Source of the DNA: Candidatus Omnitrophota bacterium
GTDB lineage: Bacteria > Omnitrophota > Gorgyraeia > JAFGHF01
Direction: 5' to 3'
Length of the DNA stretch: 64,000 bases
Assembly (NCBI GenBank): GCA_020341815.1
Contig: CP070837.1
Span: forward strand, 135,229-199,228
The translations under genes were made by a program, and so were the position numbers. How positions within the stretch are numbered: position 1 is the stretch's first letter; the number at the start of each line of letters is the position of its first letter. Below, one piece after another: positions 3,512 through 64,000 of the stretch. The notes beneath the pieces are model-generated. The model saw nothing but the letters and a program-made list of their open reading frames with translations, was not told the origin of the DNA and did not search any database.

Positions 3512-4369
3512 ATGCTCCTGAAGATAAGCGCCTTTTGCAGCATTAACCTGGTCCAGTTTTTATTTATTATTTTAGCCATTTATCTCTCGGGTGTATTAAT
3601 CATCAGGCTGATAAATAGATGGGTAAAGGACGTGCACCATCGCCATACGGGGCGCAAGATTACGCTTTACACGACAGTGCTGGCTATTCTGATAGTTTCT
3701 CTGATATTCTGGCTGGAAAGCGTAAAGCCGGTGGCGGTGATGATAAGTATTGTAGGCGCCGGTCTTGTAGTAGCCTTGCAGGAAGTAATCCTTTGTTTTT
3801 TCGGTTGGATTTTGATAATTTTTAAGCGTCCCTTCAGCGTAGGGGACCGGGTGGAAATTGGCTCGGTTAAAGGAGACGTCATCGATGTACGGATGTTTCA
3901 GACCGCGCTTCTTGAGGTGGGTAACTGGGTTAGCGCTGAGCAGAGCACCGGCAGGGTGGTACATGTTCCCAACAGCAGCGTATTCAGGGAAAGGGTATTT
4001 AACTATACCAAAGGCTTTGCCTTTATCTGGAACGAGGTCAAGGTAACCGTTACTTTTGAGACCAACTGGGCCAAGGCCAAAGAGATTGTTTTGCGCCAGG
4101 CCGGCTCCCAAGCAGATGAACTGAAAGCAAAGGCGCAGACGTCCATTGAAAAAATGGCTCAGCGCTATATGATTCATTATGAGAAATTTACGCCTATTGT
4201 CTATGTAAACATCGTTGATTATGGCGTAGAGCTTACCTTGCGTTATCTGACGCAGGTACGCGAAAGGCGCACGACCGAGGACAGGATATCGCGAGGTATC
4301 CTGGAGGAGTTTAACCGGGAAAAGGATATACAGTTTGCTTATCCTACTTACCGCATTGTAAAAAAATGA
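3512..4369 (+). CDS. mscS: Small-conductance mechanosensitive channel (MscS family)
   Basis: Three N-terminal transmembrane helices and an MscS beta-domain motif (PFSVGDRVEIGSVKGDVIDV). Confidence 0.8.
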   Translation: MLLKISAFCSINLVQFLFIILAIYLSGVLIIRLINRWVKDVHHRHTGRKITLYTTVLAILIVSLIFWLESVKPVAVMISIVGAGLVVALQEVILCFFGWILIIFKRPFSVGDRVEIGSVKGDVIDVRMFQTALLEVGNWVSAEQSTGRVVHVPNSSVFRERVFNYTKGFAFIWNEVKVTVTFETNWAKAKEIVLRQAGSQADELKAKAQTSIEKMAQRYMIHYEKFTPIVYVNIVDYGVELTLRYLTQVRERRTTEDRISRGILEEFNREKDIQFAYPTYRIVKK

Positions 4370-4480
4370 ACCCCGCCCTTCCCAACACTATGCTTTGCAT
4401 AAGAGATATTGGCGAAGGCAATAAAAGGAAGGGTTGGGGATATAACCCTGGCATAGCGATGAAAGGAAGAGCGGGGTGAA
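4366..4480 (+). repeat. IR-flanked intergenic repeat element (RPE/MITE-like), copy 1, subfamily A
   Basis: Left end TGAACCCCGCCCTTCC includes the mscS stop. Right end GGAAGAGCGGGGTGAA includes the SD-like motif and the glgC GTG start. Core is TTGCATAAGAGATATTGGCGAAGGCAATAAAAGG. Confidence 0.8.
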
Positions 4481-5696: not shown

Positions 5697-6970
5697 TGCG
5701 ATTGAACATTACCGAGAAAATATTGTTAGCGCATACAGATCGAGAAGAGATCTCACCCGGAGAAATTATTGAGGCCCGCGTAGATTTGGCCCTGGGCAAC
5801 GATATTACCGCGCCCCTTGCTATTAAAAAATTCAAGGCCGCAGGCATCAAAAAGGTGTTCAACCGCGAAAGGATTGCTCTTGTCTGCGACCATTTTGTGC
5901 CCAATAAGGACGCTCCCAGCGCCCGTCAGTGCCGGATGGTTGAAGACTTCGCCCGTGATTTTAAGATTAATCATTTTTATCCCCTGGGAGAAGGCGGCAT
6001 TGAGCATGTGCTTTTGCCTGAGGCGGGCCTGGTTCTTCCGGGAGATTTGATTATAGGGGCCGATTCGCACACCTGCACCTACGGCGCCTTAGGGGCCTTT
6101 TCCACAGGAGTGGGCTCAACGGATTTAGCGGCGGTCTGGATTACGGGAAAGATTTGGCTGCGCGTGCCCGAATCGATGAAGTTTATCTATTCCGGAAAAT
6201 TAAGACCCTGGGTAGGCGGCAAAGACCTTATCCTGCACACCATAGGCGATATCGGGGTCTCCGGAGCTACATATAAGGCCATGGAGTTTACCGGGCCTGC
6301 GATTAAACATTTGTCCATGGATGACAGATTCTCGATGTGTAATATGGCTATTGAGGCCGGGGCAAAATCAGGGATAATTGAAGCGGATAAAATAACGCGT
6401 AAATATATTAATTCAGTCGCTAGTCGCTTGTCGCTAGTATCTAGTAAAAGATTTTATAAAAGCGATAGGAACGCCAGGTATTGCGACATGAGGGAATATG
6501 ACGTAAGTAAACTCCAGCCGCAGGTGGCCTGTCCGCATCTGCCCAGCAACGTAAAGCCCGTAGGCGAGCTGAAAAAAGTAAGCATAGACCAGGCGGTAAT
6601 CGGCTCCTGCACCAACGGGCGGATTTCCGATTTGATGACAGCGGCCAGAGTCCTGAAAAACAAAAAGGCTAATTCCCGGGTAAGGTTAATCGTTTTTCCG
6701 GGCACGCAGCAGATTTATCAAGAGGCCCTGAAGATGGGCTTAATGGATATATTTATTGATGCCGGTGCAACTATTTGTCCGCCTACCTGCGGGCCCTGCC
6801 TTGGCGGGCATATGGGCGTTTTAGGTGATAAAGAAGTGGCTATCGCCACCACTAATCGTAATTTCCGCGGTAGAATGGGGGCTTTAACAAGTAAGGTGTA
6901 TTTGTCTAATCCGGCTGTAGCAGCGGCAAGTGCCGTTCATGGCACGATTACGCATCCGGGAGAGAGTTGA
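5696..6970 (+). CDS. leuC: 3-isopropylmalate dehydratase large subunit (archaeal-type LeuC/aconitase family)
   Basis: Aconitase-family Cys ligands (CTNGR, CGPC) at a length of 424 aa. Followed by leuD and leuB. Confidence 0.85.
   Translation: MRLNITEKILLAHTDREEISPGEIIEARVDLALGNDITAPLAIKKFKAAGIKKVFNRERIALVCDHFVPNKDAPSARQCRMVEDFARDFKINHFYPLGEGGIEHVLLPEAGLVLPGDLIIGADSHTCTYGALGAFSTGVGSTDLAAVWITGKIWLRVPESMKFIYSGKLRPWVGGKDLILHTIGDIGVSGATYKAMEFTGPAIKHLSMDDRFSMCNMAIEAGAKSGIIEADKITRKYINSVASRLSLVSSKRFYKSDRNARYCDMREYDVSKLQPQVACPHLPSNVKPVGELKKVSIDQAVIGSCTNGRISDLMTAARVLKNKKANSRVRLIVFPGTQQIYQEALKMGLMDIFIDAGATICPPTCGPCLGGHMGVLGDKEVAIATTNRNFRGRMGALTSKVYLSNPAVAAASAVHGTITHPGES
6414..6446. repeat. Heptamer tandem array inside leuC (AGTCGCT AGTCGCT TGTCGCT AGTATCT AGTA)
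   Basis: The 7-bp periodic repeat is directly visible. About 30 nt nearly match the array at 15675-15712. Confidence 0.6.
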
Positions 6971-12486: not shown

Positions 12487-13506
12487 ATGTTAAAAATTGC
12501 TATAGTAGGGGCAACAGGATATGCAGGTGAGGAATTATTGAAAGTTTTAGTCAATCATCCCCGCCTTAAGATAACCTCTGTCTCGGCGAAGATAGATAAA
12601 CCGCAGAAGATCGATCAAGTCTTTCCTTATCTTAAAGGCAAGTTAGATTTAATCTGTAAAGAGCCGGACTTTTCTCAAATTGTACCTGATTGCGATTTGG
12701 CCTTTCTGGCGCTTCCGCACCGGGTATCTATGGATGTGGCTCCTCAATTTCTGCATGGGGGAAAGAAGGTTATCGACTTAAGCGCAGATTATAGATTAAA
12801 AGAGACTTCTGTCTATGAGAAGTGGTACGCCGCCAAACATAAAGACCCCGAACATCTTAAAGGGGCAGTTTATGGCCTGCCGGAAGTTTACAGAAAAAAA
12901 ATTAAACAGGCCCAGCTTATAGCCAATCCCGGCTGTTATCCTACGGGAATAATTCTGGGCTGCCTGCCTTTTTTGTCGAAGCATGCGGTGTTCACGGAGA
13001 ATATTATCGTTGATGCCAAGACCGGCTTAAGCGGCGCAGGAAGAGAAAAAGAGGCCTTGCTTATTCCCCAGATGCAGGATAATTTCAGGGCCTATAAGGT
13101 TGATGAACATCAGCATTCACCGGAGATAAATCAGGAATTATCCGGCTTTGCCAAAGAAAAAATAGAGATTACCTTTACCCCTCATCTTATTCCTATAAAG
13201 AGGGGAATCTTGAGCACAATTTATTTTCAATTGAAAAATAGAATTTCCCAGGAAGAGGCGCAGAAACTGTATCAGGATTTTTATCAGAATGAGCCGTTCG
13301 TGAAAGTGTTACCGGAAGGAAAGTTTCCTCAGCTTAGGGATGTAGTGAAGACGAATTTCTGCCACATAGGCTTGAAGGTAAACCCGGCCAGAAAAACAGC
13401 TATTGTTATTTCCGCCATAGATAACTTGGTTAAGGGTGCCTCCGGACAGGCGGTACAGAATATGAATATTATGTATGGGTTTGAAGAAACAGAAGGCTTG
13501 AAATGA
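12487..13506 (+). CDS. argC: N-acetyl-gamma-glutamyl-phosphate reductase
   Basis: MLKIAIVGATGYAGEEL and the active-site Cys region (NPGCYPT). Confidence 0.9.
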   Translation: MLKIAIVGATGYAGEELLKVLVNHPRLKITSVSAKIDKPQKIDQVFPYLKGKLDLICKEPDFSQIVPDCDLAFLALPHRVSMDVAPQFLHGGKKVIDLSADYRLKETSVYEKWYAAKHKDPEHLKGAVYGLPEVYRKKIKQAQLIANPGCYPTGIILGCLPFLSKHAVFTENIIVDAKTGLSGAGREKEALLIPQMQDNFRAYKVDEHQHSPEINQELSGFAKEKIEITFTPHLIPIKRGILSTIYFQLKNRISQEEAQKLYQDFYQNEPFVKVLPEGKFPQLRDVVKTNFCHIGLKVNPARKTAIVISAIDNLVKGASGQAVQNMNIMYGFEETEGLK

Positions 13507-13620
13507 ACCCCGCCCTTCCTAAAAAATGCAACTTAAGTATTGCAAAGAAGCGCTGGGGAGCTTTACTTTTGTTAAAAAAATGTATACAGAATAAGGGATG
13601 AAAGGAAGAGCGGGGTGAAG
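13504..13620 (+). repeat. IR-flanked intergenic repeat element, copy 2, subfamily B
   Basis: Left end TGAACCCCGCCCTTCC includes the argC stop. Right end GGAAGAGCGGGGTGAAG includes the argJ GTG start. Confidence 0.8.
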
Positions 13621-14823: not shown

Positions 14824-15678
14824 ATGAAAAAGGCGATACAGAAGGCGGATATTTTATTAGAGGCCCTGCCTTATATTAAGAAGTTTCAGCATAAGGTTAT
14901 GGTGATAAAGTGCGGGGGCAGGCAGTTAATGAATAAACACATTATTGATAATATCCTGCAGGATATAGTGTTTATGAATTGCGTGGGCCTGAATCCGGTG
15001 CTTATCCACGGAGGCGGCCCCAGCATTAATCAGACACTGCAAGATTTAGGCAAAAAGATAGAGTTTCATCAGGGCTTTCGTGTTACGGATAAGCATACCT
15101 TAACAGTGGTGGTTAAGGAGTTAAATAAGCTTAACCAGTTAATGGTGAAGAAAATCAGGCAACTGGGAGCAAAGGCCGAAGGCCTAAGCGGTCAAAAGGG
15201 TAAGGCAATTAAAGCAAAAAAATTGCATTTCGATAAGAATATCGGTTTTGTGGGAGAGGTGGCCGCGATAAATACGCAAGGGATAAAAAATTTATTAAAA
15301 AGAGGAGTTGTGCCGGTACTTACTCCTTTGGGAATAGGCAGGGACAATCAAATTTACAACATTAATGCCGATATGGCAGCGGCGGAGATAGCCGCACAAT
15401 TAGGAGCGTGGAAACTGGTTCTTTTGACCGATGTGCAGGGTATTATGTATAGTCAAAGGGATAAAAATTCGCTGATTTCGACTTTGAAAATAGCAGAGAT
15501 TAAAGCTTTGATTAAAAAAGGCATTATCCATGGAGGGATGCTGCCCAAGGTTGCTTCCTGCGTAAAAGCATTAAAAAATGGAGTAAAAAAGACGCACATA
15601 ATTGACGGGGGAACCCCTCGTTCCTTGCTTCTGGAAATCTTTACCAATGAAGGTATCGGTACCCAGATTGTCAGTTAG
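14824..15678 (+). CDS. argB: Acetylglutamate kinase
   Basis: VIKCGG and the amino-acid kinase fold, with arginine-cluster context. Confidence 0.9.
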   Translation: MKKAIQKADILLEALPYIKKFQHKVMVIKCGGRQLMNKHIIDNILQDIVFMNCVGLNPVLIHGGGPSINQTLQDLGKKIEFHQGFRVTDKHTLTVVVKELNKLNQLMVKKIRQLGAKAEGLSGQKGKAIKAKKLHFDKNIGFVGEVAAINTQGIKNLLKRGVVPVLTPLGIGRDNQIYNINADMAAAEIAAQLGAWKLVLLTDVQGIMYSQRDKNSLISTLKIAEIKALIKKGIIHGGMLPKVASCVKALKNGVKKTHIIDGGTPRSLLLEIFTNEGIGTQIVS

Positions 15679-15812
15679 TCGCTCGTCGCTCGTATCTGGT
15701 ATCTAGTAAGAAGTAAGACAGAAACAATAAAATTTTTTAAATATTTAGAAATTACACAAAAAGTTTTTAATAACTAGATACAAGATACTGGATACTAGAT
15801 ACTAGTAAAAAT
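15675..15812. repeat. Inverted arrays of GTATCTNG/GTCGCT heptamer repeats flanking an AT-rich core (argB-argD intergenic)
   Basis: Left arm is TAGTCGCTCGTCGCTCGTATCTGGTATCTAGTAAGAAGTAAG. Right arm is CTAGATACAAGATACTGGATACTAGATACTAGTAA, the reverse complement of tandem GTATCTNG units. About 60 bp of AT-rich sequence lies between them. Confidence 0.6.
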
Positions 15813-17001: not shown

Positions 17002-17922
17002 ATGAAGAGAGACTTTCTTTCCATTAAGGATTTGCAGTTAGAAGAGATTGAGCATATCTTTAGCCTGACCGATGAGCTCAAGGCGAAGGTCAAGGACCAT
17101 AGCCGCAGTTTATCGGGTAAGTCCCTGGGGCTCATCTTTCTCAAGCCTTCTTTAAGGACAAGGGTATCTTTTGAAGTGGGGATGAACCAGTTAGGGGGTT
17201 ACGCCCTTTCCCTGGCGGCGGAAGATATAAAGTTTGGCACCAGAGAAGCGGCTAAAGATTTCGGTAAAGTTCTTTCGCGATATTTAGATGCCTTGGTGGT
17301 AAGGACCTTTTCTCATAGCGAAGTTGAGGAGCTGGCAGACTCATCCGATATTCCCGTAATCAACGGCTTAACGGATTTACTGCACCCTTGCCAGGCATTA
17401 AGCGACCTTTATACCATTAAAGAGAAAAAAGGTAATTTAGACGATATTAAGCTTGCCTTTATAGGTGACGGAAATAATGTAGCCCATTCTTTGCTTTACG
17501 GATGCGCTAAATTAGGAGTAAACTTAAAGATAGCTACTCCCTCCAAACATAAACCTGATGAGGAAATCTTTAATCATGCAAAGGAACTGGCCAAATCATC
17601 CGGAGTGGAAATAATTTTGTCGGATAAGCCCTCCAGCGCGGCAGCCAATGCCGATGTAATATATACCGATGTCTGGGCAAGTATGGGCCAGGAGAGAGAA
17701 TATAAGAAAAAAGTTAAAGATTTTAAAGGATTTCAGGTAAATCAGGAGCTTCTTTCTTTGGCAAAACCAGATTGTCTGGTGATGCATTGCCTGCCGGCGC
17801 ACAGAGGCGAAGAGATAACCGATGAGGTACTTGACGGGGCCCATTCCATAGTATTTGACCAGGCAGAGAACAGGATGCACCTGCAGAAGGCAATATTATT
17901 GATGTTGTTAGGAGGATATTGA
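17002..17922 (+). CDS. argF: Ornithine carbamoyltransferase
   Basis: STRTR and HCLPA motifs. Confidence 0.9.
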   Translation: MKRDFLSIKDLQLEEIEHIFSLTDELKAKVKDHSRSLSGKSLGLIFLKPSLRTRVSFEVGMNQLGGYALSLAAEDIKFGTREAAKDFGKVLSRYLDALVVRTFSHSEVEELADSSDIPVINGLTDLLHPCQALSDLYTIKEKKGNLDDIKLAFIGDGNNVAHSLLYGCAKLGVNLKIATPSKHKPDEEIFNHAKELAKSSGVEIILSDKPSSAAANADVIYTDVWASMGQEREYKKKVKDFKGFQVNQELLSLAKPDCLVMHCLPAHRGEEITDEVLDGAHSIVFDQAENRMHLQKAILLMLLGGY

Positions 17923-18043
17923 TGAACCCCGTTACTCCCAAGCACCACGCCTTGCATAATAGATATGGGCGAAGCTAATAAAAAGGAATAGCGGGGATAA
18001 AGATTTGGCATTAGGATGAGATGAAAGGAGTAACGGGGTGAAA
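17923..18043 (+). repeat. IR-flanked intergenic repeat element, copy 3, subfamily A, with compensatory arm changes
   Basis: Left end TGAACCCCGTTACTCC and right end GGAGTAACGGGGTGAA, including the argG GTG start. The arms differ from the other copies but remain mutually complementary. Confidence 0.8.
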
Positions 18044-19207
18044 AAGGTAATTTTAGCCTATTCGGGAGGATTGGATACTTCTTGCTGTGTAGTTTGGCTT
18101 AAAGAGCAGGGGTTTAAGGTGATTACCTATACCGCAGATTTAGGCCAGGGAATAAACTTTGCCCAGCTGAAGAAAAAGGCCAAAGATTGCGGGGTAAGCA
18201 AGGCCTATGTTCAGGGCTTAAAAGATAAGTTTCTCAAACATTTTGTTTTTCCTACGCTTCGTGCCGGGGCAATCTATGAAGCAAAATATCCTCTGGCTAC
18301 AGCCTTGGGCAGGCCCTTGATTGCCGAGGGCTTGGTGGAGATTGCCCATAAAGAAGGGGCTGGATATATCGCCCACGGCTGCACCGGAAAGGGTAACGAC
18401 CAGGTGCGAATTGAGGTCTCTGTAGCAGCCCTGGATAAAAAAATAAAAACGATTGCACCTTTAAGGGAATGGGACTTAAAAACAAGAGAAGAGGAAATAA
18501 AATATGCCAAAAAACACCAGATTCAGGTTTCCGCTACCAAAAAGAGCCCTTACAGCACAGACTTAAATCTCTGGGGCAGAAGTATTGAATGCGGGGTATT
18601 AGAAAACCCCTATCATGAGCCTCCGGAAGAGATTTATGAGTTAACCGAAAATCCGCTTAAATGTCCAAATAAAGCAACTTATGTAACAATTGAGTTTGCC
18701 GAAGGCGTGCCTGTAAAATTAAACGGAAAAGCACAGGGAGCAGTTGCTCTTATATCCAAGCTTAATAAAATAGCCGGTGCCTGTGGTGTAGGCAGGATTG
18801 ATATGGTGGAAAACAGGCTCGTTGGAATTAAAAGCAGGGAGATTTATGAGGCCCCGGCAGCGATAGTTCTTTACCTTGCCCATCGTGAGCTGGAGGATTT
18901 GGTCTTAGATAGAGAAACTGCCCAGTTTAAAAGAATTGTTGCAGAGAAATATTCGCAGTTAGTCTACAACGGCCTCTGGCACACGTCGCTAAAGAGCGCC
19001 CTGGATAAGTTTGTTCAGGTCACACAGAAAAATGTCACAGGTGTTGTTAAAATGAAGCTGTATAAAGGCAGTTGTGTATGTGTAGGCAGAAAATCGCCCT
19101 TCTCCTTGTACAAAAAAGAACTGGCCACATATGAAAAAGGGGATAAGTTTGATGCATCCGCAGCAAGCGGCTTCATCAAGATTTGGGGCCTGCCATATAA
19201 TAGTTAA
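18038..19207 (+). CDS. argG: Argininosuccinate synthase
   Basis: AYSGGLDTS PP-loop and argininosuccinate synthase signature. GTG start. Confidence 0.9.
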   Translation: MKKVILAYSGGLDTSCCVVWLKEQGFKVITYTADLGQGINFAQLKKKAKDCGVSKAYVQGLKDKFLKHFVFPTLRAGAIYEAKYPLATALGRPLIAEGLVEIAHKEGAGYIAHGCTGKGNDQVRIEVSVAALDKKIKTIAPLREWDLKTREEEIKYAKKHQIQVSATKKSPYSTDLNLWGRSIECGVLENPYHEPPEEIYELTENPLKCPNKATYVTIEFAEGVPVKLNGKAQGAVALISKLNKIAGACGVGRIDMVENRLVGIKSREIYEAPAAIVLYLAHRELEDLVLDRETAQFKRIVAEKYSQLVYNGLWHTSLKSALDKFVQVTQKNVTGVVKMKLYKGSCVCVGRKSPFSLYKKELATYEKGDKFDASAASGFIKIWGLPYNS

Positions 19208-19229
19208 TTGATAAAAAGGAGAAAAAACA

Positions 19230-20927
19230 ATGCCTAAAATCAATGTAATACTTTTGATTGGTTTGGCTGCTATTGTTACGAGCACATCCTTTGCCGAAGA
19301 ATTCACCCTGACCACCTATTACCCCGCCCCATACGGGGTATATCGCGAGATGCGCGCACAAAGAATGGCCATAGGAGATAACTTCTATGATGCCTCGGCC
19401 TATTGTTGGCAGGGAACTTGTACCGATGCCATAGGTTCGGCTGCCGATTTAGTTGTACAGGGTGATGTGGGTATTGGAACTCATAATCCTTCAAGGAGAC
19501 TGACTATTGCCGGAAGCGGCGGATACGGCGAAGCAGGAGCCGCGGCAATCGGGCTGGAAAATACATCAGCAACAGGCACCAACTGGCAGTGGCACGTAAG
19601 AGATGACATGCGGGCTCAACTCGTTGACTACACTACAGCAGGCATAACAAGATTTTTGGCTTCATCAGGTAATGCTGTAGGATACATATATGTTGATGGA
19701 ACAGACGGTAATGTAGGCATTGCCGCAACCGGGACATTTAGTCCTGTAAATAAGCTGGATGTGGATGGAGCAGTTGCCATTGGCGATACTTACGCGGGAT
19801 CATCCACAGCGCCTGCTAACGGGTTGCTTGTTGAGGGTAATGTCCGTTTCAACAGTGCTATAGCGCGGCAGGGCTCGACCCTGGCAGGTAACGCTCCTGC
19901 CACCCACGTTAATTTAGGAGCAAGTAGCACTACAGGGTGGAAAGGAACAGGAGCAGCCGGCTATGCAACAGTGGGGGGAGGATATAATAATAAGGCAATA
20001 TTGGATTACACCACGGTTGCTGGTGGATCGGGCAACAAAGCAGATAATAGCTGGTCAACAGTTGGCGGTGGAAAGTCAAATAGTGCAATTGACTATGCCT
20101 GTTTCATTGGAGGCGGGGATGGCAATTCTGCAAAAGGAGACTGTTCTTCAATTTTAGGTGGCAAGAACAATCAGGCTGCGGATAACTACTCTACTGTAGC
20201 AGGAGGCATAGCCAATAAAGCTATCGGCAGAGTGTCTTTTGCAGCAGGAGCATTGGCAACAGCTAGACATGATGGTAGTTTTGTTTGGGCTGACTATTCA
20301 GAAAGTGTAGAGTATGCTTCTAATGGAGAAAACACCTTCAACATCCTTGCCGACGGAGGTATCTATTTTACTGGAGCAGCTGGGACCAATAACTTAAGAT
20401 ATAGGCCGGGTGACATTGCAGAGTTTGTCGATACCCTAAAAAAAGACCGACTTCAGGAAGCAGAGATAGTCAGTATAGTGGACAATAATCTTTTTGGCAG
20501 GACAACAAAGCCTTATGATGAGAACCTAATGGGGGTTATTTCCGGGGATAGGACCTGTTCTTTTTATATAGGCCAGACCGAAAGTCTCAAAGAAGAGATA
20601 GAGCGCTTGCCCATAGCTTTGGCCGGCCCTGTGTATGTGAAGGTAACCAGCGAGTCAGGTAATATAGCTATAGGCGATTCCATAACTTCATCGGCTATTG
20701 CAGGTGTAGGGATGAAGGCTACTCGAAGCGGCAAAATCATCGGTTACGCGATGGAAAATGAGGATTTTTCTGATGCCGGAGAGATAAAAGAAATTTTGGT
20801 ATTTGTTAATATAGGATATTATATGGCAAATGATGATTTTCGAAAGTTAACACAACTTGAGCAAAGCTTGACTAAGATTGAACGCTTAGAAGAAGAGATA
20901 GAGATGTTGAAGGCGGAATTATTTTAA
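19230..20927 (+). CDS. Secreted glycine-rich repeat protein (tail-fibre-like / YadA-head-like repeats) with C-terminal coiled coil
   Basis: Signal peptide MPKINVILLIGLAAIVTSTSFA. Repeated xTVAGG.GNKA / SxxGGG.xNxA units and a C-terminal heptad coiled coil (LTQLEQSLTKIERLEEEIEMLKAELF). Inserted between argG and argH. Confidence 0.6.
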   Translation: MPKINVILLIGLAAIVTSTSFAEEFTLTTYYPAPYGVYREMRAQRMAIGDNFYDASAYCWQGTCTDAIGSAADLVVQGDVGIGTHNPSRRLTIAGSGGYGEAGAAAIGLENTSATGTNWQWHVRDDMRAQLVDYTTAGITRFLASSGNAVGYIYVDGTDGNVGIAATGTFSPVNKLDVDGAVAIGDTYAGSSTAPANGLLVEGNVRFNSAIARQGSTLAGNAPATHVNLGASSTTGWKGTGAAGYATVGGGYNNKAILDYTTVAGGSGNKADNSWSTVGGGKSNSAIDYACFIGGGDGNSAKGDCSSILGGKNNQAADNYSTVAGGIANKAIGRVSFAAGALATARHDGSFVWADYSESVEYASNGENTFNILADGGIYFTGAAGTNNLRYRPGDIAEFVDTLKKDRLQEAEIVSIVDNNLFGRTTKPYDENLMGVISGDRTCSFYIGQTESLKEEIERLPIALAGPVYVKVTSESGNIAIGDSITSSAIAGVGMKATRSGKIIGYAMENEDFSDAGEIKEILVFVNIGYYMANDDFRKLTQLEQSLTKIERLEEEIEMLKAELF

Positions 20928-20968
20928 AGGAACAGACTTCTTTTTTGCAAATAAGATAAGGTGATAAA

Positions 20969-30194: not shown

Positions 30195-30212
30195 AGGGAG
30201 GTGAAAAGACTA

Positions 30213-30482
30213 ATGGCACAAAAAGTAATGAAATGCGGCGTCACTAGGAAGAAGGGCTATCTTTACTACCTTGATAAGAACGGTAACGTCGCCGAGGCAA
30301 AGATGGCCCGGGGCAGAAAAAGAGGTGGTGGCTCCAAGGTGGTCGTCAAATGCGGCATCAAGAGGAAAAAGGGTTATCTCTACTTCATTGACAAAAAAGG
30401 CGATGTCTCTATGGCCAAAATGGTTCGCGGCGGCCGCAAGAGAAAGAAGAAAAAGGCAACAAGAAGAAGGAGAAGAAGGTAG
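30213..30482 (+). CDS. Small extremely basic protein with internal tandem duplication and poly-Arg tail
   Basis: Two ~35-aa repeats: KCG(V/I)xRKKGYLY(Y/F)(L/I)DKxGxVxxAKMxRGxRKR. C-terminus is KKKKATRRRRRR. A GGGAGGTG RBS lies 9 nt before the ATG at 30213. Confidence 0.6.
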   Translation: MAQKVMKCGVTRKKGYLYYLDKNGNVAEAKMARGRKRGGGSKVVVKCGIKRKKGYLYFIDKKGDVSMAKMVRGGRKRKKKKATRRRRRR

Positions 30483-30503
30483 TTTTATTTAAGTTTTGAG
30501 CTT

Positions 30504-30564
30504 AAGGCCCCTGTAATTGCTGCTTGGCCCGTTCAAAATTTTGAATGGGCTTTACAGGGGCCTT
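30504..30564. promoter_or_regulatory. Nested palindrome overlapping the uvrA promoter
   Basis: Outer arms are AAGGCCCCTGTAA / TTACAGGGGCCTT. Inner palindrome is GCCCGTTCAAAATTTTGAATGGGC. TTTACA(30551)-17-TATAAT(30574) overlaps the right arm. Confidence 0.55.
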
Positions 30565-30588
30565 ACCCTTTGCTATAATCGGACTAAA

Positions 30589-33463
30589 GATGCCTAAGGA
30601 ATATATTATTATAAGAGGTGCCAAAGAGCACAACCTCAAAAGTATCAACCTCAAAATTCCCCGCGACAAATTAGTGGTCGTGACCGGCTTAAGCGGTTCG
30701 GGAAAATCTTCTCTTGCCTTTGATACTATTTATGCCGAAGGACAGAGAAGGTATGTAGAGAGCCTCTCCAGTTACGCCCGCCAGTTCTTAGAGCAGTTAC
30801 AGAAACCTGATGTAGAGCATATCGAAGGTATTTCTCCGGCAATCTCTATTGAACAGAGGCCCGCAGGCAGTAATCCGCGCTCTACGGTAGGCACTCAGAC
30901 CGAAATCTACGATTACCTGCGTCTTTTATTTGCCCGTGTAGGCAGGGCCCATTGCTATAAATGCGGCCGGGAGATTTCTCGCCAGAGCCCACAACATATC
31001 GTAGAGCAGATTCTCAAATTACCTGCCGAAAGCAATATTATGCTTCTGGCCCCTTGCATCCGGGGGCGTAAAGGTGAATTTCGTCAGGTCTTTAGCGACA
31101 TTCGCAAACAGGGTTTTGTGCGCGTACGGGTGGATAATAAAGTCTACGACATAGACGAAATAAACCCCGCCCTTCTTAAAAACCCTACGTCAAAGAATAT
31201 GTATAGATTGAGCGACAAAAAGAAGGGCGGGGTGAAATTAGATAAAAAAAGAGCTCATAGTATCGAAGCGGTAGTGGATAGGCTCAAGGTTAACCCTCTT
31301 GAGAAATCAAGGCTTACGGATTCGGTGGAGACTGCCTTAAAAGCAGGAGGAGGAATAGTAATTGTTTCCAGACTCATCAAAAAAGGGCGTTGGCAGGATA
31401 TGCTCTTCAGTGAAGATTATGCCTGCGTTGATTGCGGCATAAGTTTTGCTGAGCTGCAACCACGCGATTTTTCCTTTAACAGCCCTTATGGAGCATGCAG
31501 CGCCTGTAATGGGCTGGGCACCAAGATTGAGGTGGATCCGGATCTTTTAGTGCCGGATAAAAACCGCTCGCTTTCCGAAGGCGCACTTGAGCCTTGGAGA
31601 AAAGGAGGCAGGGGTTATATCCTATATTATCGAGGGCTGATAAGGGAATTGGCCAGACAAATGGGCTTCAGTATAGATATCCCTTTTAAAAAACTAAATA
31701 AAAATGTGCGCAAGGCGATTTTTTACGGATGCGACGAATATGTCTGGGGCAAGCCGTTTGAAGGGGTGATTCCCCACCTGGAGCGTCTTTTCCGGGAGAC
31801 CGAGAGCGAGTATTTAAAATCCGAAATCAATAACTTTATGAGTATCTTGCCTTGTCCTGTCTGCGACGGGGCGCGCCTGAAAAAAGAAAGTCTGGCCGTA
31901 ACCATCAATAATAAAAGCATATGGGATGTGGTCAGAATGTCTATTAGCCGGCTCAAAGGTTTTTTCGAAGAGTTGGATCTTACTCCCGCAGAAAGCATAA
32001 TTGCCCATCAGGCCCTCAAGGGCATTAAGGAAAGATGCAGATTTATGCTCAATGTGGGGCTGGACTATCTGACTTTAGAGAGGGCCGCCGGTACTCTTTC
32101 CGGAGGCGAGGCTCAACGCATTCGCCTGGCCACACAGGTGGGGGCGGGGCTAGTGGGTGTGGTTTATATACTGGATGAGCCCAGTATCGGCCTGCACCAG
32201 AGGGATAACAGGAAGCTTCTGAACACGCTTTGCGCTCTTCGGGACCTGGGAAACAGCTTGATTGTCGTAGAGCATGATGAGGCCACTATAAGGTCTGCAG
32301 ATTATATTATCGATCTGGGGCCCGGGGCAGGCCGTCATGGCGGAAAGGTTGTAGCCTGCGGAAGCTTTAAGAGTTTATTAAGGTCGCGCGAGTCTTTAAC
32401 CGCCAGATATCTGCGCGGGCAGCTTAAAATAGAAGTGCCCAAGGCAAGGAGAAAGATAAATGCCAAGGCCCTGCAGGTCTGGGGTGCACGCGAACACAAT
32501 CTAAAAAATATAAATGTGCGTATCCCCCTGGGGTTATTTGTCTGCGTCAGCGGCGTATCCGGCTCAGGCAAAAGCACGCTTGTGGATGAGATTCTTTACC
32601 GGGGCCTGGCAAAGAAGCTCTACCGCCATAAAGAAAGGCCCGGGGCACATGACAAAATTACCGGAGCGGAATTTATAGATAAGGTGATTGTGGTGGATCA
32701 GTCTCCCATTGGCCGCACGCCCCGCTCTAATCCGGCTACCTATTCAGGGGTTTTTACTCATATCCGTGAGCTTTTCTCTAGACTTCCGGAGTCGCGTATG
32801 GCAGGATATAAGCCGGGCAGGTTCAGCTTTAATCTTAAAGGCGGAAGGTGCGAAGACTGCCAGGGCGAGGGGATAAAAAGGATAGAGATGCACTTTCTTC
32901 CCGATGTTTATGTTAGCTGTGAGACTTGTCGGGGCTTAAGGTTCAACGAGCAGACCTTGGGAATAAAATATAAGGGAAAATCTATTGCCGATGTTTTGAA
33001 TATGACAACGGAAGATGCCTTGAACTTATTTAAGAATATCCCCAGAATCAGAGAGAAGCTGGCAATTCTTAATGATGTGGGCCTGGGGTATATTCAGCTG
33101 GGTCAGTCGGCAACTACCCTCTCAGGAGGCGAGGCCCAGAGACTGAAGCTTTCTGCGGAATTAGGCAAGAGGGCTACCGGCAAGACGCTCTATATACTGG
33201 ATGAGCCCACAACGGGATTGCATTTTGCGGATATAGATAAGTTACTCGCTGTTTTACAGAGATTGGTTGATATGGGTAATACAGTGCTTGTGATCGAGCA
33301 CAATTTGGAGGTGCTTAAAAGCGCCGATTATATTATTGATTTGGGGCCTGAAGCAGGAGAGTCCGGAGGCCGCATTGTTGGCTGCGGTACACCGGAAGAA
33401 CTGGCCAGGATTGAAAGTTCCTTCACCGGTAAATATTTGAAAAAGATTTTGATGAGATGCTAA
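30589..33463 (+). CDS. uvrA: Excinuclease ABC subunit A, carrying an in-frame repeat-element insertion
   Basis: Two ABC ATPase modules ([20 protein letters not shown]), zinc fingers and signature motifs. Start taken at the ATG at 30589 after the promoter. Confidence 0.9.
31160..31237 (+). repeat. IR-flanked repeat element, copy 4, subfamily B, inserted in-frame inside uvrA
   Basis: TAAACCCCGCCCTTCT ... GAAGGGCGGGGTGAA, translated as [27 protein letters not shown] within UvrA. Confidence 0.75.
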
Positions 33464-38717: not shown

Positions 38718-38886
38718 ATAAACCATACCGACGTTGATATTGCTGTCAAAACAGGCGTTTTGAAGTGGAAAGAGTCATGAACTTTTCTCTTGACTAACCC
38801 TATATTTTATGGTATGTTAAGCCAAATTTGCCTCTCTTTAATTAGCCCGTCAAGGTTAGTCCTTTGATGACAGACTCCATATTATT

Positions 38887-41526
38887 ATGAATAAAAAAGT
38901 ATTGCTTATTGACGGTAACTCCTTTTGTTATCGTGCCTTTTACGCCATCAGAAGCCTTTCCACATCAAAAGGTCAGCCCACCAATGCGGTTTACGGTTTT
39001 GTGGCTATGCTGAATAAGCTTATCACGCAGCAAAAGCCCGATTATCTGGCAGTAGCCTTTGACCTTAAAGGGCCTACTTTTCGCCACAAGAAATTTGCCG
39101 ATTACAAAGTTCAGCGCAAGCCTATGCCGGATGATTTAAGCGTTCAATTGCCTGTGATTAAAAGGGTTCTTCATGCCTATCGTATTCCCATATTTGAGAA
39201 AAAGGGCTATGAGGCCGATGATGTTATCGCTACTTTAGCCAAGAGATTAAGCCAGACGAAAGCAGAGATATTGATAGTTACGGGAGATAAAGATATATTG
39301 CAGTTGGTTAGCAGTAATATCAAGGTAATCAATCCGCACAAAGACGATTTAGTTTTAGATGAGGGTTGGGTGAAGAAGAGGTTTGGTGTTGCGCCCGATA
39401 AAATTACCGAGATTATGGCTTTGGCAGGAGATGCCAGCGATAATATTCCCGGCGTTCCCGGCATAGGTGAGGCCACTGCCGTAGAACTGATTAAGCAGTT
39501 CGGCACACTTGATGAGGTATTAGCCAATACGGATAAGATAAAAAATAAGGCCAGGGCCGAAAAGATAAAGGAGTTTGCAAGCCTTGCCCAGATGAGCAGG
39601 GAGCTTACCCGACTGGACAGCGACATTACTCACCTGGCCGAAACCGAGCCAGGCCAGCTGCTCGGACAATTGAAAATAGTCGAGGCGGATAAAAAGGAGT
39701 TGTTTGAGATCTTTAAGGAGCTTGAGTTTAAATCCTTAATGGAGAAGGCCGCAGAAGAATTTAAGGATGAGACAGGTTATAAAGTTATTTCCGATACTAA
39801 AGAAATAGAGGAATATTTTAAAAAGCTTGCGAAAAAAGATACCATAACCTTTTATCCCGCAGGCGGGCGGCCTGACCCTGTGACGGCCAAAATATCAGGC
39901 ATTGCTTTTACTTTCGAGAGAACGAAGCCGGCGTTTTTTTCTTTCGCAGATATTTCCAAAGACGCCCTGAAGCTTATTCTGGAGAATAAAAATATAAAGA
40001 AAATCGGGCACAATTTAAAATACGCAAAAGTGCTTTTCTCCAATTACGGAATTACCTTGGAAGGTATGAGTTTCGATACGATGATTGCCGCATATCTCTT
40101 AGACCCGGCAAAACTGAAATACGGCCTGGGTGATTTAGCTTTAGAATATCTTAATTGCAAATTGGGAGATTTGCCTGATGCGGGCCTGTCTCGCCCTCAG
40201 GCGGACACAGAAAACGAGGCGGCAGAACTTGCCTGCCAGAATGTAACTATAATTTTTAGATTGAGCAAAACCTTAAAAGAAAAGCTGAAAGAAAAGAGTC
40301 TTTTGAGTTTATTTGAGAATATCGAGATGCCCCTTGCGGGAGTCTTGGCGGATATGGAAAGAGAAGGGGTTACGCTGGATAAGAAATTATTGCTTGAGCT
40401 CTCCGGAGATTTTGAGAAGAAACTGAATAGTTTAACCAGAGAGATTTATGAGATGGCCGGCGGCAGCTTCAATATCAATTCACCCAAGCAACTGAGTTCT
40501 GTTTTGTTTGATAAGCTGAAACTGCCCAGAATAAAGCGGACAAAGACAGGAAGCTCAACAGACACAGAAGTCCTGCGTAAGCTCACCAGCGTTCATCCTC
40601 TGGCCCAGCGGCTTCTGGAGTTTAGAGAGATATCCAAGCTAAAGTCCACTTATGTAGAGGGGATGATGAAGCTGTTAAAGTCTTCCTCGTCAGGAAAAAT
40701 TCACACCTCTTTCAATCAAACAGGCACCGCAACCGGCAGGCTTTCTTCAAGCCAGCCCAATTTACAAAATATCCCTATACGCACCGCTTTAGGGAGAAAG
40801 ATTCGCCGGGTTTTTGTTCCTTCGGCAGGCGACAGTTTTCTTTTATCGGCAGACTATTCGCAAATAGAATTAAGGATACTTGCCCATCTTTCGGAAGATA
40901 AAGGCTTGATTTCGGCATTTAAAGAAGACTTGGATATCCATGCCTATACGGCATCTTTAATTTTTAATGTAAGCGTTGATAAAGTATCCCGCCAGATGAG
41001 GAGCGCTGCCAAGACGGTTAATTTCGGAATTATTTACGGAATGGGCGCTTACGCCCTATCCAAGGATTTGGGCATAAAACAGGCCCAGGCAGAGGAGTTC
41101 ATCGAGGCCTATTTCCAGAGGTATCCCGGGGTGAGGAATTATGTCAAGCGCCAGACAGAAAAGGCCGCAAAAGACGGCTTTGTGACCACGCTTATGAAGC
41201 GCCGGCGCTACATCCCACAAATCCAGAGCCCTGATGAAAGCATGCGCCGCTTTGCCCAGCGCATGGCCATAAACGCGCCCGTGCAGGGCTCTGCCAGCGA
41301 TTTAATCAAGGCAGCAATGGTAAATATTCACAATGCCCTGATAAAACAAGGGCATCGGGCGAAGATGATTATCCAGGTTCACGATGAGCTGGTATTTTCC
41401 CTGCCCGAGGAGGAATTGGAGGCGCTCTCTTTGCTTGTTAAGGACAAAATGGAAAATGTAATAAAACTGAAAGTTCCGATTAAGGTTTCAATCAAAAGCG
41501 GAAAGAACTGGCTGGAGGTAAAATGA
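38887..41526 (+). CDS. polA: DNA polymerase I
   Basis: 5'-3' exonuclease N-terminus and family A polymerase motifs A, B and C (DYSQIELR, RRSAKTVNFGIIYG, QVHDEL). Confidence 0.9.
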   Translation: MNKKVLLIDGNSFCYRAFYAIRSLSTSKGQPTNAVYGFVAMLNKLITQQKPDYLAVAFDLKGPTFRHKKFADYKVQRKPMPDDLSVQLPVIKRVLHAYRIPIFEKKGYEADDVIATLAKRLSQTKAEILIVTGDKDILQLVSSNIKVINPHKDDLVLDEGWVKKRFGVAPDKITEIMALAGDASDNIPGVPGIGEATAVELIKQFGTLDEVLANTDKIKNKARAEKIKEFASLAQMSRELTRLDSDITHLAETEPGQLLGQLKIVEADKKELFEIFKELEFKSLMEKAAEEFKDETGYKVISDTKEIEEYFKKLAKKDTITFYPAGGRPDPVTAKISGIAFTFERTKPAFFSFADISKDALKLILENKNIKKIGHNLKYAKVLFSNYGITLEGMSFDTMIAAYLLDPAKLKYGLGDLALEYLNCKLGDLPDAGLSRPQADTENEAAELACQNVTIIFRLSKTLKEKLKEKSLLSLFENIEMPLAGVLADMEREGVTLDKKLLLELSGDFEKKLNSLTREIYEMAGGSFNINSPKQLSSVLFDKLKLPRIKRTKTGSSTDTEVLRKLTSVHPLAQRLLEFREISKLKSTYVEGMMKLLKSSSSGKIHTSFNQTGTATGRLSSSQPNLQNIPIRTALGRKIRRVFVPSAGDSFLLSADYSQIELRILAHLSEDKGLISAFKEDLDIHAYTASLIFNVSVDKVSRQMRSAAKTVNFGIIYGMGAYALSKDLGIKQAQAEEFIEAYFQRYPGVRNYVKRQTEKAAKDGFVTTLMKRRRYIPQIQSPDESMRRFAQRMAINAPVQGSASDLIKAAMVNIHNALIKQGHRAKMIIQVHDELVFSLPEEELEALSLLVKDKMENVIKLKVPIKVSIKSGKNWLEVK

Positions 41527-41599
41527 ACCCCGCCCTTCCAAATACCACGCCTTGCATAAAAGATATGTGCGGAAGCAATAGAAAGAAGGGCGGGGTGAA
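41524..41599 (+). repeat. IR-flanked intergenic repeat element, copy 5 (short form), subfamily A
   Basis: Left end TGAACCCCGCCCTTCC includes the polA stop. Right end GAAGGGCGGGGTGAAA includes the glgA GTG start. The element frame is open and in frame with glgA. Confidence 0.8.
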
Positions 41600-44850: not shown

Positions 44851-44940
44851 ACACTGAGAGCACTGAGAAAAATCTGAAACCTCTGAGAGTCAATTCAGTG
44901 GTTTCAGTGTAATAATTTCAGTGATTTCAGTGATAAAAAA
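44851..44940. repeat. CACTGAG / TTCAGTG repeat-rich imperfect inverted repeat in the rho-rpmE intergenic region
   Basis: CACTGAGA x2 and CTCTGAGAG on the left, TTCAGTG x4 on the right. The halves are reverse complements. Confidence 0.55.
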
Positions 44941-44949
44941 GGAGATAAA

Positions 44950-50783: not shown

Positions 50784-50813
50784 AGTAGGGGCGTATTGCA
50801 ATACGCCCCTACT
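50784..50813. terminator. 30-bp perfect palindrome AGTAGGGGCGTATTGCAATACGCCCCTACT (hairpin, no U-tract)
   Basis: Perfect self-complementarity is directly visible, immediately after the PilZ gene stop. Confidence 0.4.
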
Positions 50814-50853
50814 TGCGAAAGAACGGTTCAGTGATAAAAAAGGAGGTGGGAAA

Positions 50854-63112: not shown

Positions 63113-63932
63113 GGAAACCAGGATTAGCCGGGCTATTATTAAGACAGCAGTCGATGATTTATTAAACTCTCTAGAGGTTGATGTAGGTATTGCCGGAGCC
63201 GGCCCTGCAGGCTTGACATGCGCTTACTATTTGGCAAAAGGCGGAGCCAAGGTAGTTATTTTTGAGCGTCGCCTGAACTATGGCGGGGGCATACCCGGAG
63301 GAGGCATGCTTTTTCCCCGTGTAGTTATTCAGGAGAAGGCCATACCTATTATAGAAGACATAAAGGTAAAAATAAAAGAGTTTGCCCCGGAGTTATATAC
63401 CGCTGATTCCGTAGAGATGGTGGCAAAATTAGGTACCGCTGCTATCGATGCGGGGGTGAGGATATTCCCCGCGGTCTTCGTGGAGGATGTAGTTATCCGC
63501 GAAAACGACAGAGTAGCCGGTCTTGTTTTGAATTGGACTGCAATACATATGTCCGGATTGCACGTAGACCCTTTAGGGCTTAAGGCAAAGTTTGTAGTTG
63601 ATGCCACTGGACATGAGGCCCAGATTGCCCGTATAATAGAGCGTAAAATATATGGCGCGAAGTTCAGGACGCCCACGGGTAAAGTTATGGGTGAGAAATC
63701 GATGTGGGCGAAAGAGGCGGAAGAAAAAATAGTGCAATATACGGATGAGGCCTATCCAGGCCTTTATCTTGCCGGAATGAGTGTCTCTGCGGTATATGGC
63801 CTGCCGCGGATGGGCGCTATCTTCGGAGGGATGCTTCTTTCGGGAAAGAAGACGGCGCAATTGATATTGCAGAGGTTAGAGGAAGAGGTAATTATATCAA
63901 GTAAGGATAGTAATCTGGCGGCCCACCAGTAA
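63105..63932 (+). CDS. thi4: Thiazole synthase, Thi4 family
   Basis: DVGIAGAGPAGLTCAYYLA FAD/NAD motif. Thi4-like length and pattern. Confidence 0.75.
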   Translation: MIEETRISRAIIKTAVDDLLNSLEVDVGIAGAGPAGLTCAYYLAKGGAKVVIFERRLNYGGGIPGGGMLFPRVVIQEKAIPIIEDIKVKIKEFAPELYTADSVEMVAKLGTAAIDAGVRIFPAVFVEDVVIRENDRVAGLVLNWTAIHMSGLHVDPLGLKAKFVVDATGHEAQIARIIERKIYGAKFRTPTGKVMGEKSMWAKEAEEKIVQYTDEAYPGLYLAGMSVSAVYGLPRMGAIFGGMLLSGKKTAQLILQRLEEEVIISSKDSNLAAHQ

Positions 63933-64000
63933 TTCTGGTGAGGCTCGCCGAATTACTGTATAATAATCTGGCGGCCCACCAGTAATTCTGGTGAGGCTCG
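63911..64000. repeat. Tandem ~55-bp duplication overlapping the thi4 3' end, truncated by window edge
   Basis: AATCTGGCGGCCCACCAGTAATTCTGGTGAGGCTCG occurs at 63911-63946 and 63966-64000. It contains the hairpin CACCAG-TAATT-CTGGTG. Confidence 0.6.

Follow-up and report, generated by a model that had tools for sequence, protein, structure and literature searches.

Among the systems described to date, the closest to the sequence considered here are the Rickettsia palindromic elements (RPEs), which are characterised, in a passage of a review that summarises Ogata et al. 2000, as short, palindromic, multi-copy sequences of ~100–150 bp found in frame in housekeeping genes (PMC10969869). The same 2024 review lists RPE, ERIC, BOX, QMITE1 and the MITEs (miniature transposable elements with inverted repeats) of Anabaena as in-frame examples, and thus the in-frame insertion of such an element is already a known kind of event. 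The present analysis concerns a 64,000-nt stretch of the genome of a Candidatus Omnitrophota bacterium (assembly GCA_020341815.1, contig CP070837.1, positions 135,229 to 199,228 of the forward strand; hereafter the window), in which a short repeat lies inside the reading frame of uvrA. This segment is very probably one copy of a family of non-autonomous, MITE-like palindromic transposable elements that is common in Candidatus Omnitrophota.

The sequence-only reading of this DNA had likened the uvrA copy to RPEs, and the comparison holds for behavior, given the in-frame copies in many proteins, but not for membership. As with RPEs, there are many short palindromic copies, a sizeable fraction of them in frame in unrelated genes and predicted to be read through as peptide; the inserts tend to sit where the host protein tolerates them, and the RPE transposase is likewise not known. 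However, the Omnitrophota element belongs to a phylum other than that of the Rickettsiales, is shorter (50–77 nt, or 110–121 nt in the long forms), and is set apart by a length and ends unlike those of the RPEs of about 150 bp described in PMC10969869, by its 4-bp target duplications, its defined R-T-R-A-A target and the placement of most of its copies on start codons.

A second parallel might be struck with bacterial MITEs (ERIC, BOX, Correia/NEMIS, QMITE1 and those of Anabaena/Synechococcus; PMC10969869), which share with it the small size, the lack of a transposase gene, inverted repeats, target duplication, presence/absence differences between close relatives, a stable RNA hairpin when transcribed and occasional in-frame intragenic copies. 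In contrast to these, the Omnitrophota element shows an asymmetric target and a fixed orientation, and no parent insertion sequence was found in the loci searched; its copies lie almost exclusively on ATGAA/GTGAA starts with the start codon regenerated, a pattern for which no report was found in the literature searched. The REP/REPIN-RAYT system and IS200/IS605-derived elements resemble it in being hairpin repeats with compensatory stems that insert in an orientation specified by a short sequence; these, unlike the Omnitrophota element, whose rare flanks are duplicated on both sides, lack target duplication and are essentially extragenic. Taken alone, the uvrA finding is a fresh example of a known phenomenon, whereas the start-codon and orientation specificity together with the repeated hits on one UvrA loop mark a distinct variant.

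The uvrA insertion and its empty site

The segment at 31160–31236 (ATAAACCCCGCCCTTCTT...AAGAAGGGCGGGGTGAA, as read from the window) lies in an open reading frame (ORF) of 972 codons at 30545–33463, which is UvrA by phmmer matches to the PDB chains 9gxk, 2r6f, 3zqj and 3pih (E=0). The true start is probably the ATG at 30590 (MPKEY) rather than 30545, since a TATAAT box occupies 30573–30578. The parts of the locus are:

30590..33463, plus strand: uvrA coding sequence (PDB and Pfam matches; longest ORF from 30545)
31161..31164, plus strand: host target TAAA, left copy of the 4-bp target-site duplication (empty site in contig L001, gaaATAAA/ATTAGAT)
31164..31177, plus strand: left terminal inverted-repeat arm ACCCCGCCCTTCTT, 14 nt, 100% complementary to the right arm
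31165..31232, plus strand: element body CCCCG...CGGGG, 68 nt (alignment to L001 stops at 31164 and restarts at 31235)
31220..31233, plus strand: right terminal inverted-repeat arm AAGAAGGGCGGGGT, 14 nt, 100% complementary to the left arm
31233..31236, plus strand: right flank TGAA, right copy of the target duplication (left/right flank concordance across the family)

The 68-nt body and the right duplication together make up a 72-nt insertion at 31165–31236, with a junction ambiguity of 2 nt, and the inserted residues are N207–V230 of the 972-aa ORF (codons 31163–31234). The segment is stop-free in the uvrA frame; since the insertion is 72 nt long and without a stop, read-through would give a full-length UvrA with 24 added residues, which are mostly hydrophilic. 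The segment folds into a hairpin of -28 kcal/mol (z = -5.9), and its left flank, TAAA, is one synonymous transition (GTA to GTG) away from its right flank, TGAA.

The case for a recent insertion is carried by the closest UvrA ortholog, P0001, which is 97% identical outside the insert. Its contig in the Logan assemblies, L001, is syntenic and aligns to window positions 20954–42407 at 92–95% DNA identity, the alignment being broken at exactly two insertions of 72 nt each, one in uvrA and the other at glgA. At uvrA, the empty site reads gacagtgaaATAAA/ATTAGATAAG (slash at the junction) and encodes DSEIKLDK, and the filled site in the window reads gaaATAAA[CCCCG...72 nt...GGGGTGAA]ATTAGAT. At glgA, the empty site is ggaggtaaaATGAA/AGTC, in which TGA is the polA stop and ATG the glgA start, and the filled site is ATGAA[CCCCG...GGGGTGAA]AGTC; there is one TGAA in the empty site and there are two in the filled one. 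Judged from these alignments, the insertion into ATAAA in uvrA postdates the split from the closest sampled relative. The wider set of orthologs agrees, with no large insert at this position in 112 of the 120 nearest UvrA proteins (one of these 112, P0019, has only three extra residues, NPL) and a gap there in the solved UvrA structures (phmmer against PDB UvrA chains). The dN/dS ratio between the uvrA genes of the window and L001 is 0.06 (dS = 0.275) with the 957-codon frame intact, so that the insert-bearing gene is under strong purifying selection and appears to be functional.

These results bear out most of what had been read from the letters. The sequence-only reading described a stop-free repeat copy in the uvrA frame, whose translation is found exactly so in the 972-codon ORF; a segment that is not broadly present in orthologs, as the empty site and the 112 of 120 proteins show; and a nucleotide similarity to other copies, which survives careful alignment (60 of 77 bases with the glgA copy, with loops that beat shuffles). 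The extent it gave, 31160–31237 with ~24 aa, needs trimming at its ends, the net insertion being exactly 24 codons (31165–31236) and the leading TAAA (31161–31164) being host target.

Within the protein, the UvrB-binding domain, UvrA_inter in Pfam (PF17760), gives two separate matches with a break near position 66 of 109, and the structures of the isolated UvrB-binding domain (3fpn and 4dfc) match the query to residue 202–205 and then in a separate second stretch. An AlphaFold2 model built on 38 orthologs (mean confidence score pLDDT 77.7; numbering from ATG 30590) renders residues 194–213 as coil with pLDDT <50, between strands 184–187 and 223–233 with pLDDT ~80. The domain matches and the model are consistent with an insert in a surface segment, a flexible loop. 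The UvrB-binding domain is itself a module that can move, and its contact on UvrB is domain 2 (PMC12796330, PMC3167621); residue-level details of the UvrA–UvrB interface were not found in the literature searched.

The neighborhood of uvrA has some further features. A 93-residue, very basic ORF at 30201–30482 has a duplicated KCG..RKKGYLY..DK.G.V..AKM.RG motif, an R/K tail and no Pfam match, and a small gene of 75–91 residues without Pfam hits lies directly upstream of uvrA in L001, L002, L115, L116 and L195. Between the small ORF and uvrA, at 30503–30565 (cf. L001 9985–10030), there is a conserved hairpin TTAAGGCCCCTGTAA...TTTACAGGGGCCTTA, whose loop in the window contains an extra ~25-nt palindrome, GCCCGTTCAAAATTTTGAATGGGC, that is not in L001. 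Further along, L001 has an extra ~1.1 kb at 18176–19314 (window ~38780–38807) with a SIR2_2-like gene that is not in the window; it adjoins an HTH_19 + Peptidase_M78 gene pair and looks like a small, variable, defence-like islet.

A dispersed palindromic family

The arm motif CCCCGCCCTTCT (at most one mismatch) occurs six times in the window against 0.45 expected, a count reached by none of 100 shuffles. Five copies can be delineated in the window, all on the plus strand, of which the uvrA copy (31160–31236) is the fourth, c4. The others are:

4366..4480, plus strand: c1, 110-nt form on a start codon; upstream ORF stop TGA at 4367–4369, downstream GTG at 4476
13503..13619, plus strand: c2, 112-nt form on a start codon; upstream stop TGA at 13504–13506, downstream GTG at 13615
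17922..18042, plus strand: c3, 116-nt form on a start codon, with a different stem, CCCCGTTACTCC / GGAGTAACGGGG; downstream GTG at 18038
41523..41599, plus strand: c5, 72-nt form in the ATGA overlap of the polA stop and the glgA start; empty site in L001

All five form terminal-stem hairpins of -28 to -42 kcal/mol (z -3.2 to -5.9), and the arms of the copies other than that in uvrA are 12–13 nt long. The copies c4 and c5, both 77 nt, share 60 of 77 bases (78%), and their loops alone are more alike than shuffled sequence (16 of 2000 shuffles reach the score). The other copies had been taken as intergenic; instead, each of the four sits exactly on a start codon. The copies c1, c2 and c5 lie within ATGA stop/start overlaps, with the upstream ORFs ending at 4369, 13506 and 41526, and c3 lies on an ATG one base past the upstream stop. 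The protein downstream of each of the four starts at a GTG composed of the last G of the element and the TG of the right duplication, and in c1 the leader ORF terminates on a GTGA overlap. The ORFs downstream of c1, c2 and c3 appear, respectively, GlgC-like (by an N-terminal motif), ArgJ-like and ArgG-like. The c5 copy, in frame with glgA from the old ATG, reads MNPALP...KKGGVK, as the sequence-only reading had noted of NPALP...KKGGVK; it regenerates a GTG at 41595 and possibly adds a 24-residue N-terminal extension to GlgA.

Beyond the window, a first scan with the arm pattern, covering one genome per GTDB species and requiring a left-hand AA and a right-hand T in the flanks, recovered at least 110 loci, which among the matches listed are mostly Omnitrophota metagenome-assembled genomes; a few loci are labelled Planctomycetia or Saccharibacteria (labels as recorded), and a match in Zoogloeaceae is an unrelated symmetric palindrome. 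Among the matches listed, the flank pairs are TGAA/TGAA in 33, TAAA/TAAA in 18 and discordant in 6, so that 51 of 57 T-R-A-A-flanked copies are concordant. As these statistics are partly imposed by the pattern, the scan was repeated in metagenomes with a flank-free pattern for one subfamily, giving 78 copies in 62 contexts. Of these copies, 59 are flanked by TGAA/TGAA, and the rare flanks are concordant too (TAAA, TCAG, TTGA and TGGA in the metagenome sample, and CAAA in L004). The concordance of flanks, the rare ones included, and the empty site at glgA show a true 4-bp target duplication.

Across the subfamilies the CCCCG...CGGGG ends are constant, whereas the stems vary by compensatory changes (e.g., CCCTTCC/GGAAGGG, TTACTCC/GGAGTAA and TTAGAGA/TCTCTAA). 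Net insert sizes are 47–77 nt for short forms and 110–116 nt for long forms, and the copies hold short ORFs or stops only, with no transposase gene inside. No copies were found in plasmids (BLAST) or in viral contigs (scan). Rfam gave no match for the whole window at the gathering threshold, and for the insert, with E up to 1, it gave only chance-level matches to CopA and RybB (best E 0.61). The family thus displays the hallmarks of MITEs: small size, terminal inverted repeats, a 4-bp target duplication and dispersed copies with presence/absence differences.

Candidates for an autonomous relative were considered and rejected. Seven pairs of CCCCG ends 0.5–3.5 kb apart all proved to be host genes bracketed by two copies, the genes between matching ends including GlyA, GT9 and QueC. 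In L002, an IS630-like element at 19183–20530 (DDE_3 + HTH genes, inverted ends CTAAGTGGT...) lies beside three family copies and abuts two copies of the CCCCGTTAGAGA subfamily; it was rejected as a parent, its inverted ends being unrelated.

Copies inside reading frames are not confined to uvrA. Stop-free, length-compatible copies occur in long ORFs for EtfB, ApbE, BirA, V-ATPase B, a ParA-like Fe-S protein, ScpB and DUF4416; the EtfB copy corresponds to a clean 19-residue gap against 6fah_B, and that in V-ATPase subunit B lies in a variable loop. In-frame copies in antisense orientation are found in an 848-residue GH-like protein and an MFS-like protein, and in a BirA-like ORF of L055 (minus strand, ~231–1364 oriented) two elements that belong to different subfamilies both sit in frame, NPVRS...TSNGV and NPALSTYEATLRGRKGGV. 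In-frame insertion, with the insert predicted to be read as extra peptide, is thus a property of the family.

The same UvrA loop has been struck more than once. Inserts occur there in 8 other orthologs among the 120, falling into four pairs: P0037 and P0046 (AKI[NPALSTTERDYNIRKGGV]KL), P0064 and P0097 ([NPVRN...ISNG(V/A)]), P0048 and P0071 (RM(S/A)LSKE...), and P0074 and P0085 (SFAKAS...). One representative per group was read at the DNA level (P0037, P0097, P0085 and P0048), and the four inserts are four different palindromic elements: in P0037 (L002), a family member of 54 nt occupies the ATAAA site that is filled in the window, with TAAA/TAAA as its flanks; P0097 (L004) has a copy with a CCCCGTTAGAAAT stem one codon upstream, flanked by CAAA/CAAA; P0085 (L115) and P0048 (L116) have two further, other palindromic elements. 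Because close relatives of the insert carriers lack inserts, separate insertion events seem a better reading than a segment conserved among them. In-frame copies are present in independent assemblies, with P0037 on 3 contigs and P0085 on 9. The uvrA of P0019 (L195 2580–2600) has an extra 9 nt at the same site, ATAAA-CCCGC-TGAA-ACTG, encoding NPL, an arrangement suggestive, though not proof, of an excision scar in which the target is followed by a few element-end bases and the duplicated target; like the uvrA copy, it combines a left-hand TAAA with a right-hand TGAA.

Start codons, orientation and competing explanations

The placement on start codons seen in the window recurs in the metagenome sample. 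The base before the left flank is A in 42 and G in 3 of the 45 distinct TGAA/TGAA copies, and C or T in none; from the right-hand GTG, an ORF of 90 codons or more opens in 39 of the 40 copies with downstream room, and these represent about 39 different genes, as judged by eye; the upstream ORF ends at the left TGA in 19 of 38. The hairpin is strong, and its right arm contains both a purine-rich run, AAGGAAGGG, and the GTG. The net lengths of gene-start copies are even over the frame classes (15/14/16), which fits peptides that are tolerated rather than used; an in-frame length bias at gene starts, which the flank-biased sample had suggested (19 of 33 multiples of three), was gone in the flank-free one.

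With its empty sites restored, the window has 351 TGAA sites, of which 19 are at putative starts, 12 are intergenic and 319 are coding. A TGAA target with purifying selection only would predict ~39% of copies away from starts, against the 0–1 of 40 observed, and is therefore insufficient. This leaves either RTGAA in one orientation, perhaps within a longer context, as the true target, or selection that favors the gene-start copies.

These patterns might be accommodated by the following scheme. A DNA transposase supplied in trans would make a 4-bp staggered cut at R-T-R-A-A. At a start codon of the form ATGAA, the left copy of the duplication keeps the TGA stop of the upstream gene, a new in-phase GTG arises from the last G of the element and the TG of the right copy, and the AAGGAAGGG run before it resembles a ribosome-binding site. 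Since the TGA is kept, the GTG made and the GTG preceded by this ribosome-binding-like arm, neither neighboring gene should be inactivated. Ribosomes from the old ATG would melt the hairpin and then read on, stop on a GTGA overlap (as in c1) or stop soon after, with downstream translation kept whichever way leader translation ends. Insertions at R-T-R-A-A inside genes would survive only in a tolerant loop, and only with an open frame and a length divisible by three, all of which holds for the uvrA copy; internal in-frame copies such as this one would be rare survivors. The uvrA copy would persist since its loop tolerates extra residues, and in other lineages other palindromic elements landed there.

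A bolder form of this scheme, which we consider a real possibility that still falls somewhat short of even likelihood, is that the family is a start-codon-homing element whose machinery recognises R-T-G-A-A in one orientation, possibly with ribosome-binding context, and whose ends rebuild the signals that it interrupts. If so, the ATGA stop/start overlaps of very compact genomes could be colonised at almost no cost; translation of the leader from the old ATG could be needed for hairpin melting, in effect a mobile translational coupling; and in-frame intragenic copies such as that in uvrA would be by-products. Nothing relevant to Omnitrophota repeats or start-codon MITEs was found in the literature searched.

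Several points weigh against the account of the family as a MITE-like transposable element. The orientation of the loop is locked to the asymmetric target, with 59 TGAA/TGAA against 0 TTCA/TTCA, and an element with identical inverted ends is not expected to show such a lock. An autonomous partner or transposase with matching ends was not found in the ~1.3 Mb of loci searched. The uvrA copy is known from one assembly, its exact protein being on record nowhere else, and the production and function of the extended UvrA are predicted from sequence. The mismatch of its TAAA and TGAA flanks means that an extra substitution or conversion from another copy must be assumed; a synonymous change after insertion, conversion from other copies and a donor flank carried along are all conceivable sources.

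Four alternatives can be weighed. One is that the element moves as single-stranded DNA by means of a tyrosine (HUH) transposase of the IS200/IS605 or REP/RAYT type, inserting 3' of T-R-A-A with the right TGAA borne by the element itself. In its favor are the strict 59-to-0 orientation lock on an asymmetric target and the hairpin form, in which the CCCCG feet are conserved while the stems differ through compensatory changes; moreover, the stem subtype correlates with the flank type. An element-borne TGAA is what the uvrA copy suggests, and its TAAA/TGAA flank pair is seen also in the P0019 footprint, while five copies of the flank-free sample combine a non-TGAA left with a TGAA right flank. However, a fixed, element-borne right end cannot yield the concordant TCAG, TTGA, TGGA and TAAA pairs within one arm subfamily, nor CAAA/CAAA, and these concordant rare flanks contradict the model; the empty site at glgA, moreover, reveals a true duplication of TGAA. 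Neither Y1 nor RAYT figured among the genes that bear Pfam labels on six related contigs, the window genes not having been scanned systematically. Single-strand movement is unlikely.

A second is co-option, whereby the loop would tune the UvrA–UvrB contact or the -28 kcal/mol mRNA hairpin would control how the uvrA mRNA is translated or how it decays; at the level of the family, the element would serve as a mobile module for translation initiation or coupling at gene starts. The repeated strikes on the uvrA loop in different lineages lend themselves to this, as do the arms of the uvrA copy, still perfect despite a dS of 0.275 to the nearest relative, the hairpins, far stabler than shuffled sequence (z -3.2 to -5.9), and the Shine-Dalgarno-like run and GTG within the stem of start-codon copies, with the c1 leader ending on GTGA. 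Nevertheless, the closest relative does without the insert, the UvrA insert peptides of the four elements read at the DNA level are unrelated to each other, AlphaFold2 models the insert as unstructured, and the lengths of gene-start copies have no frame bias (15/14/16). Co-option therefore appears quite unlikely, a little more so than single-strand movement.

Far less plausible is an ancestral or lineage-specific expansion of the UvrA loop with later loss in relatives, or an artefact of assembly across a repeat. The exact allele is indeed present in one assembly only and assemblers can be misled by repeats, but the segment shares 78% identity with a repeat copy elsewhere and has the inverted ends of the family, it is absent from all solved structures and from 112 of 120 orthologs, the uvrA frame runs on through both flanks with boundaries that fit the empty site exactly, and equivalent in-frame copies exist in independent assemblies (3 contigs for P0037 and 9 for P0085). 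Least credible of all is excision of the segment after transcription or translation as a mini-intron or intein-like unit leaving a normal mature UvrA, for while the terminal-stem hairpin is strong and would bring the two junctions together, 24 residues are far too few for an intein and intein motifs are absent, there is no match to an Rfam intron or other family, and the gene-start copies, which are spread over the three length classes and in many cases include stops, fit plain DNA insertions.

Other repeats and the significance of the insertions

Other palindromic and repeated sequences are found in the window and in related loci. In many Omnitrophota loci (L007, L013, L016, L031, L036, L042, L063, L093, L109 and others), a hairpin with a CCCCGCCCTTTTGG stem is nested in an outer CGAATT...AATTCG palindrome, and these nested hairpins are flanked by other hairpins, ACTTACGG...CCGTAAGT, as clustered palindromic families that are possibly inserted in each other's loops. 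In the window, a stop codon is followed at 50784–50813 by the perfect palindrome AGTAGGGGCGTATTGCAATACGCCCCTACT of 30 nt. After it comes the 19-mer TTCAGTGATAAAAAAGGAG (50827–50845), which recurs exactly at 44926–44944 in another intergenic gap and may be a 5' leader or a region for ribosome binding that the two places share. Two 41-nt copies, 98% identical and 53 nt apart, each with a hairpin CTGGCGGCCCACCAG, are found at 63907–64000, where they begin right after a gene end and run past the window edge. At 15677–15805, an AT-rich spacer that separates two genes is enclosed by runs of heptamers (GTCGCTA, GTCGCTC, GTATCTG and GTATCTA) and the inverse of these, and a similar heptamer run occurs at 6415–6447.

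A practical corollary of the insertions is that gene callers may assign wrong starts or spurious N-terminal extensions to many genes in such genomes, and that conserved proteins may appear with unexplained inserts of 18–24 residues. For the biology of the group, in-frame "selfish DNA in genes", best known from Rickettsia, is now seen in a free-living, mostly uncultured phylum with a different family of elements. The repeated hits on the UvrA loop, together with the clean empty and filled sites, amount to a natural experiment on loop tolerance and the origin of new peptides. If, in addition, the start-codon pattern reflects the mechanism of insertion, it would represent a new targeting strategy for bacterial transposable elements.

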